Below, piece after piece: positions 24,683-44,021 of a DNA stretch of 44,061 nt. The notes beneath the pieces were generated by a model, which saw only the letters and a program-made list of their open reading frames with translations, did not search any database and had not been told where the DNA came from. Position 1 is the first letter of the stretch. Each line of letters opens with the position of its first letter. The position numbers were made by a program, and so were the translations under genes. Location: sequence record PP920550.1. One strand, 5' to 3'. The stretch comes from Escherichia phage Dru_SM5.

Positions 24683-24727
24683 TATGTGGTCCTTATTAGC
24701 GCGGGGCCATATTGCCCCGACGCGTTA

Positions 24728-24757
24728 ACTATAGTGCAACCAACCTATTGGTTGCAA
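24728..24757 (-). promoter_or_regulatory. candidate promoter embedded in a 9-bp-arm inverted repeat
   Basis: On the minus strand: TTGCAA, 18 nt spacer, TATAGT. Spacer overlaps the inverted repeat TGCAACCAA-ccta-TTGGTTGCA (24735-24756). About 45 nt upstream of the 24682 start. Confidence 0.35.
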
Positions 24758-25215
24758 GTAAATTTTGCAACGTTTATTGCGTAAATTTTCGGGACTAAAT
24801 CGCCGCACGCCCGACGAATGGCCGCGATGTTCTTCGGACCGTCTTCAATGATGACCAGTTCCGATACGTCCGCATAGCAGACCATTTTGAATACAGCGCA
24901 CGCCTTAAACTCTGGCGGCGGGGTGTCGTCCAGCATGTGGCGCATAAACAACCGGCCGTTCGGGAATACTTTCAGTTGCTCGGCGGTGGTGTCCCAGCAT
25001 TCTCGCTGCCGGTTTGTCAGATACGCGATCTCGAAGCCTTGCTCTTTATACATGCGCAGTAGCGGCAGCATATCCATGTTCAGGTCTTCGCGAACGTGCG
25101 CTTTGTGCCACTTCGCCCAAAAGGTGGATTTCGTTTTTATGCCGGGCACCAGGTCAGCACGCGCATCGCTTGATCCATTAATAACGCCATCCAAATCGCA
25201 AATCAGTAGTTTCAT
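24745..25215 (-). CDS. HAD-superfamily phosphatase-like protein
   Basis: N-terminal MKLLICDLDGV (HAD motif I DxDG), a downstream Thr/Ser motif, and EDGP near the C-terminus. 156 aa. Confidence 0.55.
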   Translation of the reverse strand: MKLLICDLDGVINGSSDARADLVPGIKTKSTFWAKWHKAHVREDLNMDMLPLLRMYKEQGFEIAYLTNRQRECWDTTAEQLKVFPNGRLFMRHMLDDTPPPEFKACAVFKMVCYADVSELVIIEDGPKNIAAIRRACGDLVPKIYAINVAKFTCNQ

Positions 25216-25445
25216 TTTAAGCTCTCAATAAGTGTCTGTCGGGCGCTTCGCGCAGTAAAGGAGTTGCATACGAAATGGCAACGCCGAGTTATGACAAGCC
25301 AACCGGTGAGGTCAAGGCCCATGATGCGTCCGGGATGGGACGCGCGCACCACATGATTGCGGCGTGGGTCGATGCAGAAGTCTTTTTGCATTTGGTCTAC
25401 TACCGCGGGGTCGCGGTCAACGATTAAGATATTCATGTAGCTCAC
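25212..25445 (-). CDS. hypothetical protein
   Basis: 77 aa ORF, overlaps neighbours by a few nt on both sides. Confidence 0.4.
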   Translation of the reverse strand: MSYMNILIVDRDPAVVDQMQKDFCIDPRRNHVVRASHPGRIMGLDLTGWLVITRRCHFVCNSFTARSARQTLIESLK

Positions 25446-25902
25446 TCTCGCTCATTATTTCAATTTGTGCGCTGCCGCATGGCGGCGCTTCGTCAAATAT
25501 TATCAATTGCTGGCACTTGTTATTGCTCGGCCCGACTTCACCGGTTACAGCATGTATGAATCGGATCCGCCAGTCCAGAAGAATTATCAGGTTTGCAGTC
25601 TTCCTGGCCAGCTTCGCCCACTTCGTCGACGTGTCCTGATTCAGCAGCATGACAGTCCGTCGACCGTGCGCTGCGCATTCCACCCACGGCAGCGGATCGG
25701 AATACGGCGGATTGCACCACTTCCACCCTTTCAACTCTGACCAGTCCACATCAAGCGCGCTGTGCTCTGCCGTGAAGTAACGCGGTAGCAGATGGTTGGC
25801 GTCGCTTGCCGCCATATCGTAACGGAATCGGAACTTACGGCGCAGCGGTTTAAATAAAGCTGGCGGCGTGCGCCAGCTATCTTTCTGCTCACTCTTCTGC
25901 AT
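25417..25902 (-). CDS. DNA N6-adenine methyltransferase (phage Dam-like)
   Basis: Catalytic NPPY motif (WKWCNPPYSD). Size about 160 aa, typical of phage orphan N6-adenine methyltransferases. Confidence 0.75.
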   Translation of the reverse strand: MQKSEQKDSWRTPPALFKPLRRKFRFRYDMAASDANHLLPRYFTAEHSALDVDWSELKGWKWCNPPYSDPLPWVECAAHGRRTVMLLNQDTSTKWAKLARKTANLIILLDWRIRFIHAVTGEVGPSNNKCQQLIIFDEAPPCGSAQIEIMSESELHEYLNR

Positions 25903-28619: not shown

Positions 28620-28634
28620 CAGTAGCCGTATTAA

Positions 28635-28820
28635 TTATTTTTGTTCCGCACGGTAGCGGCGCTGCCGTTCTCGTTCTGCCTTGTTACGGCACGACTTACA
28701 CTGCGCGCGATACCCGTCCGGGCTACGTGCTGTTTTGCCAGTGTACTTATGAAATTGCGATAGCGGTTTAACACAGCCGCATTGGCTGCAACGTTTTTCT
28801 TCAATCATTTTAACCCTCAT
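28635..28820 (-). CDS. small zinc-ribbon protein
   Basis: 61 aa with CSQCGC...CKSCRNK (two CxxC pairs) and a basic C-terminus. Confidence 0.45.
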   Translation of the reverse strand: MRVKMIEEKRCSQCGCVKPLSQFHKYTGKTARSPDGYRAQCKSCRNKAERERQRRYRAEQK

Positions 28821-29748
28821 TAATAAATGCTTTTATAAATTCAGCCGCTACTTGTGGAACGATGGCATTGCCGTAACCGCGCAGTCGTCCCACTCTGGCG
28901 GGTATCCCATTAGCCAGCGGGAATGTGCCGGATTCAACTGGCCTGAACTTCCCATCGCGGCATCCAAGCCAGTCAGCATCTGACCAGAAGCCGTTATGCG
29001 GATCGGATGTGCTATCCTCAGACCTTGCTCCGTCGAATAATCCAGGCGGTCGAATGTTCTGTCTTTCCCGTCTTTCCTTATCACTGTCCCCCCGCTTCCC
29101 TTGAAATCGTTCGCCGTCGGTGCGGCCCAGCTTGTCAGCACCGCGACGTCCTGCAAATTTTGCTGCCGTCCTGCTTCCTTGCGTTTTATTACTTTCTCCC
29201 AATCCGTGTAACCGTTCACCGTCCCGTTTTGCGCGCAAGGACTCGGCCAGGTTGTAAGCCCCGAAGAAAAGTCTGTCCCGTTTGTGCGGTGCGCCGACGC
29301 TACAAGCTGGGAGTACGGCAAACCCGACGGCGTAGTCTTCTCTTTCCAGGTGAGCTTGTAAATCACACATCCACGATTTTGCAATTGCTGGCGCAACCTG
29401 CTCCCCAAAGATGATTGTAGGGCGGCACTCGCTGACGAGGCGGAGGAACGTCGGCGCAAGGTGTCTTGGGTCGAACTGTCCAAGCTGACGTCCTGCCGTG
29501 CTAAACGGCTGGCACGGCGGGCTTCCCGTCCAGAGGCGCGTGCTTTCCGAAACGCCCGCAAGTCGGAGCGCGAGAGGCCAGCCGCCAATACCAGCGAAAA
29601 AATGACACTGCGTGAATCCGTCGAGGTCTTCGGGTTGCACATCCTCAATACTCCTTTCATCTACTATGCCATACGGGATATGGCCTTGTTTTATTAGCTC
29701 ACGCAGCCATGCTGCCGCGTGTTTGTCCCATTCGTTGTAATAGTTCAT
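28810..29748 (-). CDS. DNA cytosine-5 methyltransferase
   Basis: Motif I FAGIGG, motif IV GSPPCQPFS (catalytic PC), an ENV-like FGEQV, and motif X GYGNAIVP. Holds a charged low-complexity insert (K/R/G/D-rich) in the variable region. Confidence 0.75.
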   Translation of the reverse strand: MNYYNEWDKHAAAWLRELIKQGHIPYGIVDERSIEDVQPEDLDGFTQCHFFAGIGGWPLALRLAGVSESTRLWTGSPPCQPFSTAGRQLGQFDPRHLAPTFLRLVSECRPTIIFGEQVAPAIAKSWMCDLQAHLEREDYAVGFAVLPACSVGAPHKRDRLFFGAYNLAESLRAKRDGERLHGLGESNKTQGSRTAAKFAGRRGADKLGRTDGERFQGKRGDSDKERRERQNIRPPGLFDGARSEDSTSDPHNGFWSDADWLGCRDGKFRPVESGTFPLANGIPARVGRLRGYGNAIVPQVAAEFIKAFINEG

Positions 29749-29785
29749 AGTTTGCCTCTTTTGTGGCTACCGGCACACTATACCG

Positions 29786-30068: not shown

Positions 30069-32360
30069 TTACTTCCTGTACCGGTACATACAATCGCCTT
30101 CAGCAGAGAGTGGGAAGCCTTTCGCCCATATCGGCAGGTCGCACATCAGCGCGCAAAGCTCCTCGGTCGTGTAGTCGTCGGTGTCCGGCACTTCGGTGAC
30201 CAATTCATCGTGCACTGACAGGACGATTTCATACCCGGCAGCTTCAACGCCTGGCATGGACCACGCGAGGATATCGCGACACAGCGCCTGTACGATGTTT
30301 TCCGTCAGTTTGCCGCCGTAGGTGTACTGGAATCCCCACTGGCGCGTCGTCTGATTCTCGCCCTGGTATTTGATGCGTGTGCTGGTGCGCTTCTTGCCGG
30401 TGTCTTCGTCGATCTCGGTCGTGACAGACAGCGCGATACCGGGATAGCTCATGATGCGCCCCGACGGCAACTCAATTTTCAACCACCACCCCGCAGCGTT
30501 CGGGTCGTCGCGCTCCTCGTCGAAGGTTGGGTCGTGCTTCGCCTTCGTGCGCACAATCTTGAGCGCTTTTCTACCGTCTGGGCGAACGTTAGCGCCAGCC
30601 CAGTAGGCTTTGCCCGGATTGCGGATTGCACACAACACCGCGTCCTCAAGCTCGGCCCAAAATGCTACGGTCTTCGGGTGGGCCTCACGCCACATGCGTT
30701 TGATCGCGTCGCATGTCAGCCATACATTTTTAGGCAGTATGTAGGTTGGGCGCTCGTCTTTCTTGCCAGGCTTCGGCGGGCGCTTCGCTTCGTTAATGCG
30801 GGCGTATTCATAACCCCGTTTAGCCGCTGCCCAAATGTGATCCGGGAACGTGCCTTTCATGACGTCCGCCATAGTGTAAAGGTCGAGGCCCAGGTTTTTA
30901 GCGAACTGTAAGAACGCCGCCACGCCGCCACCATAGCCCAGTCCCAACTCACACGCCTTACCGATCTGGCGCAAGTCTTTGCGGTTGGCTTTGATGTAAT
31001 CCGGGTCAAGGCCGAACATCTTACCGGCAGTCTCGCAATAGATATCGCGCCCGGCCTTAAACACCATTAGCGCGGTTTTCTCGCCAGCGATCCAGGCAAG
31101 GCCGCGCCCTTCCACGTTGGAGAAGTCAGCTACGACAAACTTCTTGCCCTTTGCAGGGATAATGCAGCTGCGTACGGTAGATGCTGTCAGCTTCGATATG
31201 TCGTACGCCCAGTGTGCGGTCCCGCGTAACAGGGAATTGATGCCGTTGGTGAGCATGTGCGACCGGACCCAAAACGACACGTCGCTTTCACCATCACGGC
31301 GCTTGATCTTGCCTTCGTGGTCGTCGCTGTACTCGCCACGCGCCAGGTTTTGAGGCTGAAAACCTTTACCGGCCCAACGCAGTGTACGCTTTGCCCCACC
31401 ATACTGAATGCAACCACGGCGGCGTCCATCGGCAGACAGGCCGTTGACGAGCGGATTATACTTAGTAGATGCCGTTGATGACGCACCGAGACGCATCTCA
31501 ATCAGCGCTTTGCCCTCGTCGGGGAAGTCCGGGTCTTCAAGCAGGTCGTTAAGTGTGGATTTCTGCGCGTTGTGGATTGTGAACGCCGGGGCGATATCAC
31601 GCAGGATTGGCAGGAAGTCATTGCCTGTCAGTTTACCACCAAATCGCTCCCAGGCTTCCTCCTTCAATTCTTCCTTATGCGCCTGCACCGCTTTGATCGC
31701 GGCGTTCGCCAGATCAACGTCCACATAGAAGCCGCGGTCGTTGATCAACTGGTCGATAAGCAGGATTTCATCTTCCTTCGGGGTATTACCCCAGTCCGGT
31801 ATGCGCCAGTAGACCTCCCGCATCGCGATAATATCCAGCGCGGCATATCGCAGAAATTTGGCCCATTCTTCAGGGTGAGTCTCGCGAGTGTAGCGGCGGA
31901 TTTTGTAAGTCTTAGGGGTCGGCTTACAGAATCGTTTAATCAGCGCCTTGCCTGCCTTATCCTTCGCGTGCTCTGCGTCAACGCCCAGAACCTGACACTG
32001 CATATCGAGGCTACCCGGCAGCGCGTGGCGAAAGGCCATAATCATGGTGTCTTCGATCTGGCTTACCGGCAGGTCAATACCCCACTTCTCACGGATAACC
32101 AGGCGGTCAAACAGGAGGCCGTTAGCCATCACGATTTTTGCTTTCTTGCGGGATACATGGCGGAGCGCCTTGCGCAGTTCACGCGGCATTGTGGGGGATT
32201 CAGTGGCATCCCATGTCTGCACGCGGCCTTCGTCGATGGCGTAGGTGCAAATCATAATCTCGGTGGTTGGGTGCTCTGCGTAGGCGTACGCCCCTACTTT
32301 CTTCAGGTCAACCCCGCTGAATGTCTCGGTGTCGAGAAACAAGCGTTCGAAGTCTTTCAT
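30069..32360 (-). CDS. family A DNA polymerase with 3'-5' exonuclease domain
   Basis: Exo I-like LFLDTETFSG; Pol motif A-like VVADFSNVEGRGLAWIAGE; motif B-like QIGKACELGLGYGGG; motif C VLSVHDELV. 763 aa. Confidence 0.8.
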   Translation of the reverse strand: MKDFERLFLDTETFSGVDLKKVGAYAYAEHPTTEIMICTYAIDEGRVQTWDATESPTMPRELRKALRHVSRKKAKIVMANGLLFDRLVIREKWGIDLPVSQIEDTMIMAFRHALPGSLDMQCQVLGVDAEHAKDKAGKALIKRFCKPTPKTYKIRRYTRETHPEEWAKFLRYAALDIIAMREVYWRIPDWGNTPKEDEILLIDQLINDRGFYVDVDLANAAIKAVQAHKEELKEEAWERFGGKLTGNDFLPILRDIAPAFTIHNAQKSTLNDLLEDPDFPDEGKALIEMRLGASSTASTKYNPLVNGLSADGRRRGCIQYGGAKRTLRWAGKGFQPQNLARGEYSDDHEGKIKRRDGESDVSFWVRSHMLTNGINSLLRGTAHWAYDISKLTASTVRSCIIPAKGKKFVVADFSNVEGRGLAWIAGEKTALMVFKAGRDIYCETAGKMFGLDPDYIKANRKDLRQIGKACELGLGYGGGVAAFLQFAKNLGLDLYTMADVMKGTFPDHIWAAAKRGYEYARINEAKRPPKPGKKDERPTYILPKNVWLTCDAIKRMWREAHPKTVAFWAELEDAVLCAIRNPGKAYWAGANVRPDGRKALKIVRTKAKHDPTFDEERDDPNAAGWWLKIELPSGRIMSYPGIALSVTTEIDEDTGKKRTSTRIKYQGENQTTRQWGFQYTYGGKLTENIVQALCRDILAWSMPGVEAAGYEIVLSVHDELVTEVPDTDDYTTEELCALMCDLPIWAKGFPLSAEGDCMYRYRK

Positions 32361-41695: not shown

Positions 41696-41937
41696 TTATC
41701 TCCGTCCTGTTGTTTGTTATCATAGGGGCTTCGTCCCTGTTTAACGTGTATGCGCCGTCCGTCCAGGATGGCATTTTAGGCCGGGTGCTATATCTGCTAA
41801 CGGCGATGATCTGCGTTGTCGGATTGTTGCAAACAGGAGACGTATCTGACACCACCTGGACCGCGTTAATCTGGCTGTTTGCATTGCGCACACTGCGTAA
41901 TGCTGTTTTGAATGGGGTAAAACATGCGATTCAGTGA
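41692..41937 (+). CDS. putative holin/antiholin-like membrane protein
   Basis: 81 aa with 2-3 TM segments. Overlaps neighbours; directly upstream of the endolysin. Confidence 0.5.
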   Translation: MIISVLLFVIIGASSLFNVYAPSVQDGILGRVLYLLTAMICVVGLLQTGDVSDTTWTALIWLFALRTLRNAVLNGVKHAIQ

Positions 41938-42415
41938 CAACGGTCTGAGATTTACGGCAGCATGGGAGCAATTCAGCCCAGTGCCGTATTTCGCGACTAA
42001 GAAAGAGCAGGCCCGCGGCCTGTATACCTGGGGCTATGGTCACACCGGCACTAATCCGCCGCGGAGCATTACCCGTGCGGAAGCACTGGAGCTACTCAAG
42101 CGCGACGTGGCGTATGCCGAGAACTGGGTAAACAAGTACGCACACCCGAGCATTAATCAGGCGCAATTCGACGCGCTGGTGGACCTGGTTATCAATGCCG
42201 GTCCAGGTCCGATCATGCCGGACGACGTCGCCGGTGACTTCGACGATGCGATCCGCCTGGGTGACTGGGCAAAGGTCCGTGCTACGCTGCCACAATTCCG
42301 CAAGCAAGGCGGGGCAGTGCTCAAGGGGCTTGTCCGTCGTGCAATCGGCAGGCAGGCACTATTTGATGGTAAGCAGTGGGACGTTGCCGAGAAAATCGGA
42401 CGTAACGCAGCATAA
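41924..42415 (+). CDS. endolysin (lysozyme-like muramidase)
   Basis: 163 aa. N-terminal region with a conserved Glu (AWEQF) and a TWGYGHTG segment resembling the lysozyme/GH24-like fold. Follows holin-like genes. Confidence 0.65.
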   Translation: MRFSDNGLRFTAAWEQFSPVPYFATKKEQARGLYTWGYGHTGTNPPRSITRAEALELLKRDVAYAENWVNKYAHPSINQAQFDALVDLVINAGPGPIMPDDVAGDFDDAIRLGDWAKVRATLPQFRKQGGAVLKGLVRRAIGRQALFDGKQWDVAEKIGRNAA

Positions 42416-42431
42416 TACGGGGTAACACAGT

Positions 42432-42593
42432 ATGTTAAAAAGTATTCGTGATCATAACGCCGACGCGCTCGCCGCGCTGGCTAAAACCGAAGACCCAGGC
42501 GCTCGCGCCATTATCGCGGACACTATCAGTCATGCTGGCGTATTTGACGCGAAGCTGCCGAGTCCGCCACCGCCGGAAGATCCAGAAGTGTAA
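42432..42593 (+). CDS. small hypothetical protein downstream of endolysin
   Basis: 53 aa ORF with RBS GGGGTAA, no TM segment or lipobox. Followed by a terminator. Confidence 0.3.
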   Translation: MLKSIRDHNADALAALAKTEDPGARAIIADTISHAGVFDAKLPSPPPPEDPEV

Positions 42594-42600
42594 ACTACCA

Positions 42601-42626
42601 AGCCCGGTTAATTCCGGGCTTTTTAT
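42601..42626 (+). terminator. intrinsic terminator after lysis cassette
   Basis: AGCCCGG-ttaatt-CCGGGCT followed by TTTTTAT. Confidence 0.6.
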
Positions 42627-42629
42627 TGC

Positions 42630-42659
42630 TTGACTTGCAACCAACATAGACGCCATACT
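42630..42659 (+). promoter_or_regulatory. candidate sigma70-type promoter
   Basis: TTGACT, 18 nt spacer, CATACT. Spacer contains GCAACCAA; GCGACCAA follows. Confidence 0.4.
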
Positions 42660-42690
42660 GCGACCAATCAACAAGAGGAGTATTACACTA

Positions 42691-42771
42691 TGGCACGTAA
42701 TGATATTTGGGTATTGGCAATCTGGTCCGCCGCAGCATTTATCGGTATGGTTATTTGCGAATTGCTATAAC
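42691..42771 (+). CDS. tiny hydrophobic peptide ORF
   Basis: 26 aa (MARNDIWVLAIWSAAAFIGMVICELL) after an AGAGGAG RBS. One TM-length hydrophobic stretch. Very short, so speculative. Confidence 0.25.
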
Positions 42772-42831
42772 CCGCCACAATAGGTACCGTGGTATATTGT
42801 CCTCGGCCCCATAATCAGGAAGTGGATTAAT

Positions 42832-43974
42832 ATGCACCCGCAAACTAAAATCACTGACGAGCAATTGATCGCCGAGTTGCAATCAGGCACTACCGCGAAA
42901 GAGATTGCGAAGAAGTACGGCCTTTCCCTACGAAACGTCTACATGCGCAAAGCCCGCCTGTCGAAGAAAGGTATTGGTCACGGTAACGATGCCGTAATCC
43001 GTAAGCGCGTTGCCGATGGCTTCGGCGTTAAGCGCGTATCCGCCCTGGTGCGCGGCAATGGTGAAGAGGTCATGTCGTGGGTCATCACCGAGCAGGACAA
43101 GGAGCGCCAGCTTGAAGCAATGCGCGCCGTTGTCGAGGGCATGAACAGCGAAATCACACCGGCAGCGCCCGTAAAAGCCCCGCCAGTTCCGATCCAGGCG
43201 CTCGACTTGCTCAACCTGTACACCGTGTCAGACTTCCACCTGGGCATGTTGGCATGGGGCGAGGAGACTGGCGAAGACTGGGATATGGCGATCGCCGAAG
43301 ACCTGTTCTACCGCTGGTTTGTCGAAGCCTTCGCCCGCGCACCGGACGCAGGCACTGCCGTAATTAATATCCTCGGGGATATGGCCCACTTTGACAGCCT
43401 CGATGCCGTCACTCCAGCCAGTGGTCACGTACTGGACGCCGACACCCGCTACCAGAAACTGGTCCGATACATGATTCGCATGGTGCGCAACGTCGTCGAA
43501 CTGGCGCTGCAAAAACACCACAAAGTAAAACTGCTAATCGTCCAGGGAAATCATGACGAGTCGGGTATGATTTGGCTGGCTGAGATGTTCAATACTCTGT
43601 ACGAGAACGAGCCGCGCGTCGATGTGGATACGTCACCGGACGTTTACAAAATGGTGCAGCACGGTAAGACCACGCTGTTTTTCCACCACGGGCACAAAGC
43701 GCGATTCGATGCTATCGAGCAGGTTATGATTTCTAAATTCAGACAGGCTTTCGGATCCAGTGAGTACAGCTACGCGCACGTAGGCCACTTGCACCACCAG
43801 AAGATTGTAGAATCCCGCAACATGATTGTTGAACAGCACCGGACGCTCGCAGCGAAAGACGCCTACGCCAGTCGTGGCGGTTGGATGTCAGGTCGCAGCG
43901 CCAACGTCATTACCTACAGCGCCAACTACGGCGAAGTAGCGCGCTTAACCATTAGCCCGGAAATGTTGAAGTAA
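42832..43974 (+). CDS. HTH domain fused to calcineurin-like metallophosphoesterase
   Basis: N-terminal HTH-like TAKEIAKKYGLSLRNVYMRK. C-terminal phosphoesterase motifs GDMAHFD, QGNHDE, HHGH and GHLHH. Confidence 0.5.
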   Translation: MHPQTKITDEQLIAELQSGTTAKEIAKKYGLSLRNVYMRKARLSKKGIGHGNDAVIRKRVADGFGVKRVSALVRGNGEEVMSWVITEQDKERQLEAMRAVVEGMNSEITPAAPVKAPPVPIQALDLLNLYTVSDFHLGMLAWGEETGEDWDMAIAEDLFYRWFVEAFARAPDAGTAVINILGDMAHFDSLDAVTPASGHVLDADTRYQKLVRYMIRMVRNVVELALQKHHKVKLLIVQGNHDESGMIWLAEMFNTLYENEPRVDVDTSPDVYKMVQHGKTTLFFHHGHKARFDAIEQVMISKFRQAFGSSEYSYAHVGHLHHQKIVESRNMIVEQHRTLAAKDAYASRGGWMSGRSANVITYSANYGEVARLTISPEMLK

Positions 43975-43993: not shown

Positions 43994-44021
43994 CAGCCCG
44001 CCGATTTGGTGGGCTTTTTTG
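43994..44021 (+). terminator. intrinsic terminator
   Basis: AGCCCGCC-gatttg-GTGGGCT followed by TTTTTT. A TATAAT box follows at 44028-44033. Confidence 0.55.

Follow-up and report, generated by a model that had tools for sequence, protein, structure and literature searches.

The gene and its locus

The window analysed here is the whole 44,061-nucleotide sequence of Escherichia phage Dru_SM5 (PP920550.1), which corresponds to the complete genome of a Dhillonvirus, a siphovirus infecting E. coli. We focused on a coding sequence (CDS) on the + strand, at positions 42832–43974 (stop codon included), that combines an N-terminal helix-turn-helix (HTH) with a metallophosphoesterase domain in a protein of 380 aa. 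The first-pass annotation of this DNA had delimited the open reading frame (ORF) exactly: it starts with ATG and is preceded, 9 nt upstream, by the Shine-Dalgarno sequence AGGAAG (42817–42822). Its product is 100% identical to CDS39 of the related phage EE09, annotated as a 'putative calcineurin-like phosphodiesterase', and mass spectrometry of EE09 lysates detected this identical protein with 3 peptides (11% coverage) (PMC10673088). An exhaustive HMMER search recovered 4696 cluster representatives at E ≤ 0.001, 1136 of them at E ≤ 1e-30 and most with a length of 370–420 aa. Given this number of homologues and the peptides from EE09, the ORF is a genuine, conserved and expressed gene, rather than a chance ORF.

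The final 1.46 kb of the window matched 156 phage records with 80–99% identity, nearly all of them from Dhillonviruses of Escherichia or Shigella. Since the window opens with terS (23–595) and terL (595–1980), the HTH-metallophosphoesterase gene is, on the circular map, the last one ahead of the packaging and structural operon. The lysis cassette lies upstream, with two holin-like genes and an endolysin gene (41924–42415), followed by a 53-aa ORF (42432–42593).

Domain architecture and predicted structure

The conservation analysis and the AlphaFold2 model (pLDDT 93, pTM 0.83) were based on an alignment of 114 homologues displaying 33–49% identity to the query. In the model, residues 9–45 (42856–42966) form a three-helix bundle with a recognition helix (helices 9–17, 22–29 and 33–45, all with pLDDT >90), corresponding to a tri-helical HTH of the resolvase, LuxR or sigma-70 region 4 type. 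The Pfam HTH models gave weak matches to the query itself and significant matches to many of the homologues (Sigma70_r4_2, 1.5e-9; GerE, 2.4e-8; HTH_8, 2.6e-7). The HTH, already recognized in the first-pass annotation, is present across the family, and the longer members carry two copies of it. A short helix connects it to a middle module (residues 60–110; 43009–43161) consisting of a long beta-hairpin (64–88) with near-invariant G77 and W83 residues and a helix (90–107). A structural match to this module was sought and none was found.

The catalytic domain (residues 123–342; 43198–43857) has the beta-sandwich phosphoesterase fold and contains, in order, the five motifs of the superfamily (DxH, GD, GNH[DE], H and GHxH): D134xH136 in SDFHLG (motif I), GD183xxH186 (motif II), GN240H241D242E (motif III), H286 in HHGH (motif IV) and GH319xH321 (motif V). 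Motifs II to V had been identified in the first-pass annotation, whereas motif I had been overlooked. The metal ligands are preserved on careful alignment, with D134, H136, G182, D183, N240, H241, H286, G318 and H321 invariant in all 114 homologues, as is T194, which is specific to this family. Because the metal-ligand and catalytic residues are invariant at such levels of divergence, the protein is probably an active enzyme rather than one bearing a decayed domain. Between motifs II and III lies a conserved insert (residues 184–206, including H186, D188, T194, D202 and R206) that is peculiar to the family. The C-terminal extension (residues 343–380; 43858–43971) includes conserved D343, G350, R355, Y362 and G367 residues and a beta-hairpin (357–374), and the protein terminates 59 residues past motif V. 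What had previously been noted is thus slightly extended, by motif I, by the hairpin-helix module in the middle of the protein and by the insert specific to this family.

The query fell short of the Pfam gathering thresholds (PF00149, 20.7 versus 21.5 bits; PF12850, 22.5 versus 27 bits), and only 24 and 19, respectively, of the 114 members matched these models at E < 0.01. As the generic models do not reach their cut-offs, the family appears to constitute a divergent branch of the metallophosphoesterase superfamily. Despite these sub-threshold scores, the model makes the predicted metallophosphoesterase fold unambiguous. The closest folds are those of the nucleases DP1, SbcD and Mre11, with non-nuclease metallophosphoesterases close behind (LpxH, 13.9; MJ0936, 13.5; YfcE, 12.8; GpdQ, 12.6; Rv0805, 12.2), and PPP protein phosphatases reaching only about 9. 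BFVD contains many similar phage proteins, some of which were deposited as 'DNA polymerase II small subunit'. A PDB search with the single sequence returned designed repeat proteins, spurious matches originating from residues 67–100 that were discarded; the PDB profile search yielded nothing under E 0.03, and no NCBIfam family scored over its cut-off.

Distribution and genomic neighbourhoods

In the profile and structure searches, which the first-pass annotation had proposed as a check, the protein not only adopted the fold described above but also matched phrog_704 ('DNA repair exonuclease') from end to end (E 6.9e-162; residues 5–380 against profile positions 2–390 of 390). The T1 gene ST16 bears the same annotation. 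A tblastn search retrieved 2063 phage records, including Dhillonvirus, Kagunavirus (K1G), Jerseyvirus, Drexlerviridae (Rogue1), many Klebsiella phages and N4-like Vibrio phages, together with truncated forms in Campylobacter and other phages. Homologues adjoining phage genes were also found on large chromosomal contigs of alpha-, beta-, gamma- and deltaproteobacteria. In Drexlerviridae, this is a persistent core gene, present in 508 of 522 genomes, and in those lacking the SH3 gene the polynucleotide kinase (PNK) and deoxynucleoside monophosphate (dNMP) kinase genes are the commonest ones directly downstream (PMC13164509). The family is known and catalogued, and this exact protein is already in GenBank.

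No single partner gene was conserved across the loci inspected. The gene lies directly upstream of terS and terL both in the window and in prophages of Bordetella and Paraburkholderia. In a Carnimonas prophage and in viral contigs of the lambdoid type, it is located downstream of the genes for DnaB and NinB/Orf, and a gene for a Q-like antiterminator or a RusA-like resolvase comes directly after it; the antiterminator gene overlaps it in eight viral contigs. In Kagunavirus-type contigs (L006–L025), it belongs to a small opposite-strand cassette between the tape-measure and the minor/major tail genes, and is immediately followed by genes for a PNK-type phosphatase (phrog_415, E 4e-67) and a P-loop dNMP kinase (phrog_139). 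The Salmonella phage Ent2, a Jerseyvirus (L083), has the same type of cassette, but with an HNH endonuclease and an anti-repressor gene after it. In T1 and Rogue1 the gene lies upstream of the lysis cassette, and in an N4-like phage it is found among early nucleotide-metabolism genes. The neighbours in unrelated phages and prophages comprise NinB/Orf, RusA-like resolvase, DnaB, Q-like antiterminator, terS/terL and endolysin genes. What these loci have in common is that the gene lies at the early/late boundary, where the region for replication, recombination and nucleotide metabolism ends. A packaging accessory tied to the terminase was rejected as a general rule, because the gene is distant from terS in T1, Rogue1, the Jerseyvirus and the N4-like phage, although it is adjacent in Dhillonvirus and some prophages.

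Transcription signals and other features of the window

The segment immediately upstream of the gene (42568–42786) is variable. In the window it comprises the end of the 53-aa ORF, a terminator-like hairpin on the + strand (AAGCCCGG-N6-CCGGGCTT plus a T-run, 42600–42629, with the hairpin itself at 42600–42621; −15.7 kcal/mol, z −3.6), a sigma-70 promoter-like element (TTGACT-N18-CATACT, 42630–42659, + strand) identified by consensus match only, with 9 of 12 positions matching, and a 26-codon ORF (MARNDIWVLAIWSAAAFIGMVICELL, 42690–42770, + strand) with a strong GAGGAG ribosome-binding site. The hairpin and the promoter-like element are kept in phage welsh and in contig L005. The 26-codon ORF, located between this element and the main gene, encodes a hydrophobic, membrane-peptide-like product and is also conserved in welsh, L002 and L005, relatives in which it shows amino-acid substitutions and is unannotated. 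Both the hairpin and the 26-codon ORF are absent from EE09-type genomes. EE09 (L085, 27951–28275) instead carries the C-terminal part of a 137-aa ORF, the first 42 residues of which are the same as those of the 53-aa ORF of the window; the 137-aa protein was detected by mass spectrometry with 28% coverage (PMC10673088).

The block conserved with EE09 resumes at 42786 and includes an extended −10-like element read from the sequence, TGGTATATT (42790–42798, + strand), 34 nt upstream of the start codon. This element was invariant in all four Dhillonvirus sequences aligned; lacking a −35 match, it had escaped the promoter scan. The first-pass annotation had assigned the gene its own promoter after the lysis terminator. 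This is plausible at the level of consensus, as the hairpin and the TTGACT-N18-CATACT element are retained in two relatives, but the whole segment is replaced in EE09, the intervening 26-codon ORF had been overlooked, and the element common to all the relatives compared is TGGTATATT, which we consider more likely to be the conserved promoter of the HTH-metallophosphoesterase gene. A second terminator-like hairpin on the + strand (AGCCCGCC-N-GGTGGGCT plus a T-run, 43995–44021) is located downstream of the gene, before terS, and scored marginally better than shuffled sequences (z −1.2); a rho-independent terminator is annotated directly downstream of T1 ST16 too.

The early module of the window encodes a helicase, methyltransferases, a DNA polymerase, a gp2.5-like single-stranded DNA-binding/annealing protein, a phrog_69 exonuclease and a helicase-primase. 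The polymerase ORF (30069–32360, − strand, 763 aa) matched not only a polymerase profile but also, at residues 465–561, the endonuclease family phrog_93, and the blastn alignment with EE09 is interrupted nearby, between 30440 and 30573. These features suggest that an endonuclease-like segment has been inserted, or that a mobile element lies inside or beside the gene. The stretch 28627–29769, including an ORF (28810–29748, − strand) for a 312-aa DNA methyltransferase (phrog_363), is a variable insertion relative to EE09, since it had no blastn match there. The Dhillonvirus protein Ksap1, 74 aa long, is a trigger of Klebsiella Avs2 (PMC11564622). From the gene order of EE09 (CDS3, methyltransferase; CDS4; CDS5, PNK/phosphatase), its homologue is expected at about 24700–25400 (− strand) in the window, beside a methyltransferase gene (25417–25902). 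The possibility that the HTH-metallophosphoesterase is itself this trigger was ruled out, given the size of Ksap1 and its location elsewhere.

A putative DNA-tethered nuclease

Considered together, the invariant active site, the family-wide HTH, the nuclease folds closest to the model, the core status of the gene and its recombination and nucleotide-salvage neighbours lead us to favour, with a probability of about one half, a metal-dependent nuclease that acts on its own, tethered to DNA, in the DNA metabolism of the phage. The enzyme would be a two-metal (probably Mn2+) DNA phosphodiesterase of the Mre11/SbcD/PolD-DP1 structural type, held on DNA by its N-terminal HTH and working without an ATPase of the Rad50/SbcC type. 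It would act during the transition from replication to late functions, either processing ends or structures of DNA in support of concatemer formation and recombination-dependent replication, or degrading host DNA for nucleotide salvage. We infer DNA to be the substrate from these observations, and the same applies to any type and polarity of cleavage, to the target of the HTH and to the biological role. The resemblance of SDFHLG (motif I) and GNHD (motif III) to SDWHLG and GNHD in SbcD is consistent with a nuclease, and the GDxxH form of motif II is also present in archaeal and eukaryotic Mre11. A phage metallophosphoesterase with nuclease activity has a precedent in mycobacteriophage A10ZJ24, the gp48 protein of which breaks down DNA in vitro and, in vivo, the DNA of the host (PMC12287305). 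A DNA-targeted nuclease was one of the functions proposed in the first-pass annotation and is the one that fits the evidence best.

Several observations weigh against this proposal. No sequence kinship to SbcD or Mre11 was detected: a specific relationship to E. coli SbcD was rejected (hhalign probability 2.9%), and the PDB profile search gave E values of only 0.7–2.2. Nor was any kinship found to the gp47/gp48 family of mycobacteriophages (hhalign probability 5.6%). The spacing between motifs III and IV is 45 residues, versus 100 in SbcD, the model has no capping domain, and a Rad50/SbcC partner was identified neither in the annotated genome of EE09 nor in T1, nor among the large ORFs in the early region of the window. 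A recombination nuclease is, moreover, not obviously lacking, since the genome already encodes the phrog_69 exonuclease and the gp2.5-like annealing protein. Finally, the literature searched contained no functional study or experiment on any member of the family.

The enzyme may instead be a phosphodiesterase or phosphatase with small-molecule substrates, either nucleotides or signalling molecules (cyclic mono-, di- or oligonucleotides, Ap4A, dNDP/dNTP or 2',3'-cNMP). Its HTH would then serve for autoregulation or for DNA binding of some unrelated kind, BirA and NadR being examples of such enzyme-repressor fusions. We consider this unlikely. The HTH, conserved and at times duplicated, is difficult to explain for an enzyme of soluble metabolites, and a search for an operator-like palindrome in the region upstream of the gene yielded none, just the terminator stem and a weak 9-nt pair. 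A regulator of host signalling through cyclic nucleotides, as also envisaged in the first-pass annotation, received no positive support: the PADLOC defence and anti-defence models gave 0 families at E ≤ 1, the gene behaves as persistent core rather than as a variable accessory of anti-defence islands, and an HTH would be pointless for such a task. It is even less likely that the protein heals the ends of broken RNA or DNA, as a 2',3'-cyclic phosphodiesterase or 3'-phosphatase working with the phage PNK, for instance to mend tRNAs cleaved by anticodon nucleases of the host. A parallel for such an activity is found in Clostridium thermocellum Pnkp, with its metallophosphoesterase module, and the phosphatase and kinase genes directly downstream in Kagunavirus-type contigs point to it, as do the same pair in Drexlerviridae without the SH3 gene and the PNK/phosphatase encoded elsewhere in Dhillonvirus genomes. 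However, the PNK gene lies about 18 kb from the metallophosphoesterase gene in the window, as in EE09, no ligase gene adjoins the latter in any of the loci inspected, the motifs typical of the lambda-phosphatase/Pnkp class (GDxxDRG and GNHE) are missing from the domain, and the HTH suggests duplex DNA rather than tRNA.

We give least credence to the possibility that the protein is chiefly a DNA-binding regulator or protein-protein factor, involved in the early-to-late switch or in packaging beside terS, with the phosphoesterase fold as a scaffold or sensor. Bxb1 gp47, a metallophosphoesterase-fold protein serving as a recombination directionality factor, sets a precedent for this, and gp47 homologues carry the source name 'RDF protein'. 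The HTH resembles those of sigma-70 region 4, LuxR and resolvases, and the gene occupies early/late boundary positions: upstream of terS here and in the Bordetella and Paraburkholderia prophages, overlapping the Q-like antiterminator gene in the eight contigs, and, in Drexlerviridae, ahead of the lysis cassette. Against this, all the catalytic residues are invariant over large evolutionary distances, indicating that catalysis is under selection, and the neighbourhood is variable, with no one partner conserved.

It is conceivable, though rather doubtful, that the protein represents a new functional class, a Rad50-independent, DNA-anchored nuclease of the Mre11/DP1 type; alternatively, it could be a bifunctional enzyme-regulator coupling DNA processing to the early-to-late switch. 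T1 degrades the DNA of its host. Such a nuclease could be responsible for breaking down the host chromosome and recycling its nucleotides in phages of the T1-like, Dhillonvirus and Jersey-like groups, and its breakdown products would then feed the neighbouring dNMP kinase. As a sequence finding, our analysis adds nothing to existing database content. Nevertheless, in several large groups of virulent coliphages and of phages infecting Salmonella, Klebsiella and Vibrio, many of them in therapeutic use, this gene is among the most persistent ones. If the protein does attack host DNA or process replication intermediates, a core step of infection would be explained, with a bearing on the risk of transduction as well as on defence systems responding to the products of DNA breakdown. 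It would be of greater interest should it prove to be the nuclease that, in T1-like phages and their relatives, degrades host DNA or is essential for replication. In the papers on defence by m6dAMP sensing, the gene mutated in escape phages is denA of T-even phages, not a member of this family.

Comparison with known systems

Mre11 and SbcD lack an N-terminal HTH, whereas the phage protein has one, and they possess a capping domain, in place of which the phage protein has a far shorter C-terminal extension with the single beta-hairpin at residues 357–374. DP1, the 3'-5' proofreading exonuclease subunit of archaeal PolD, is 13% identical to the phage protein and has an OB fold before its phosphoesterase domain, where the phage model has the HTH and the hairpin-helix module. 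Its partner, the catalytic subunit DP2, is not encoded by the phage genome, the polymerase of which is of the Pol I type. Operation without an ATPase partner has a counterpart in the metallophosphoesterase MPE (PdeM) of Pseudomonas putida, encoded in a ligase-associated repair operon and described as a stand-alone Mn-dependent single-stranded DNA endonuclease with no ATPase partner (PMC7826289). The similarity between PdeM and the phage protein is weak and local, at motif III.

Among phage-encoded enzymes, the metallophosphoesterases of cluster A mycobacteriophages (Bxb1 gp47, L5 gp54 and A10ZJ24 gp48; phrog_221) are likewise located in the replication region, and A10ZJ24 gp48 is toxic to the host and damages its DNA (PMC12287305). 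These proteins are about 255 aa long and have no HTH, and motif I of Bxb1 gp47 is DTQ rather than DxH. The query did not match phrog_221, gp47 did not match phrog_704, and the profile-profile probability was the 5.6% given above. A kinship to Bxb1 gp47 was thus rejected both for the single sequence and for the family profile, a resemblance of the C-terminal tails noticed by eye not being upheld statistically. Kinship to the lambda Ser/Thr phosphatase NinI was also rejected: the enzyme domains are unrelated, and the PPP motifs GDxxDRG and GNHE do not occur in the phage protein. The HTH gave a weak alignment with that of the lambda NinH protein (hhalign E 1.3e-4, probability 53%). The arrangement nevertheless recalls the ninH-ninI pair of the lambda nin region, a small HTH protein gene followed by a phosphatase gene, and this analogy is one of position, the HTH-metallophosphoesterase gene being located between those for NinB and Q in lambdoid-type contigs.
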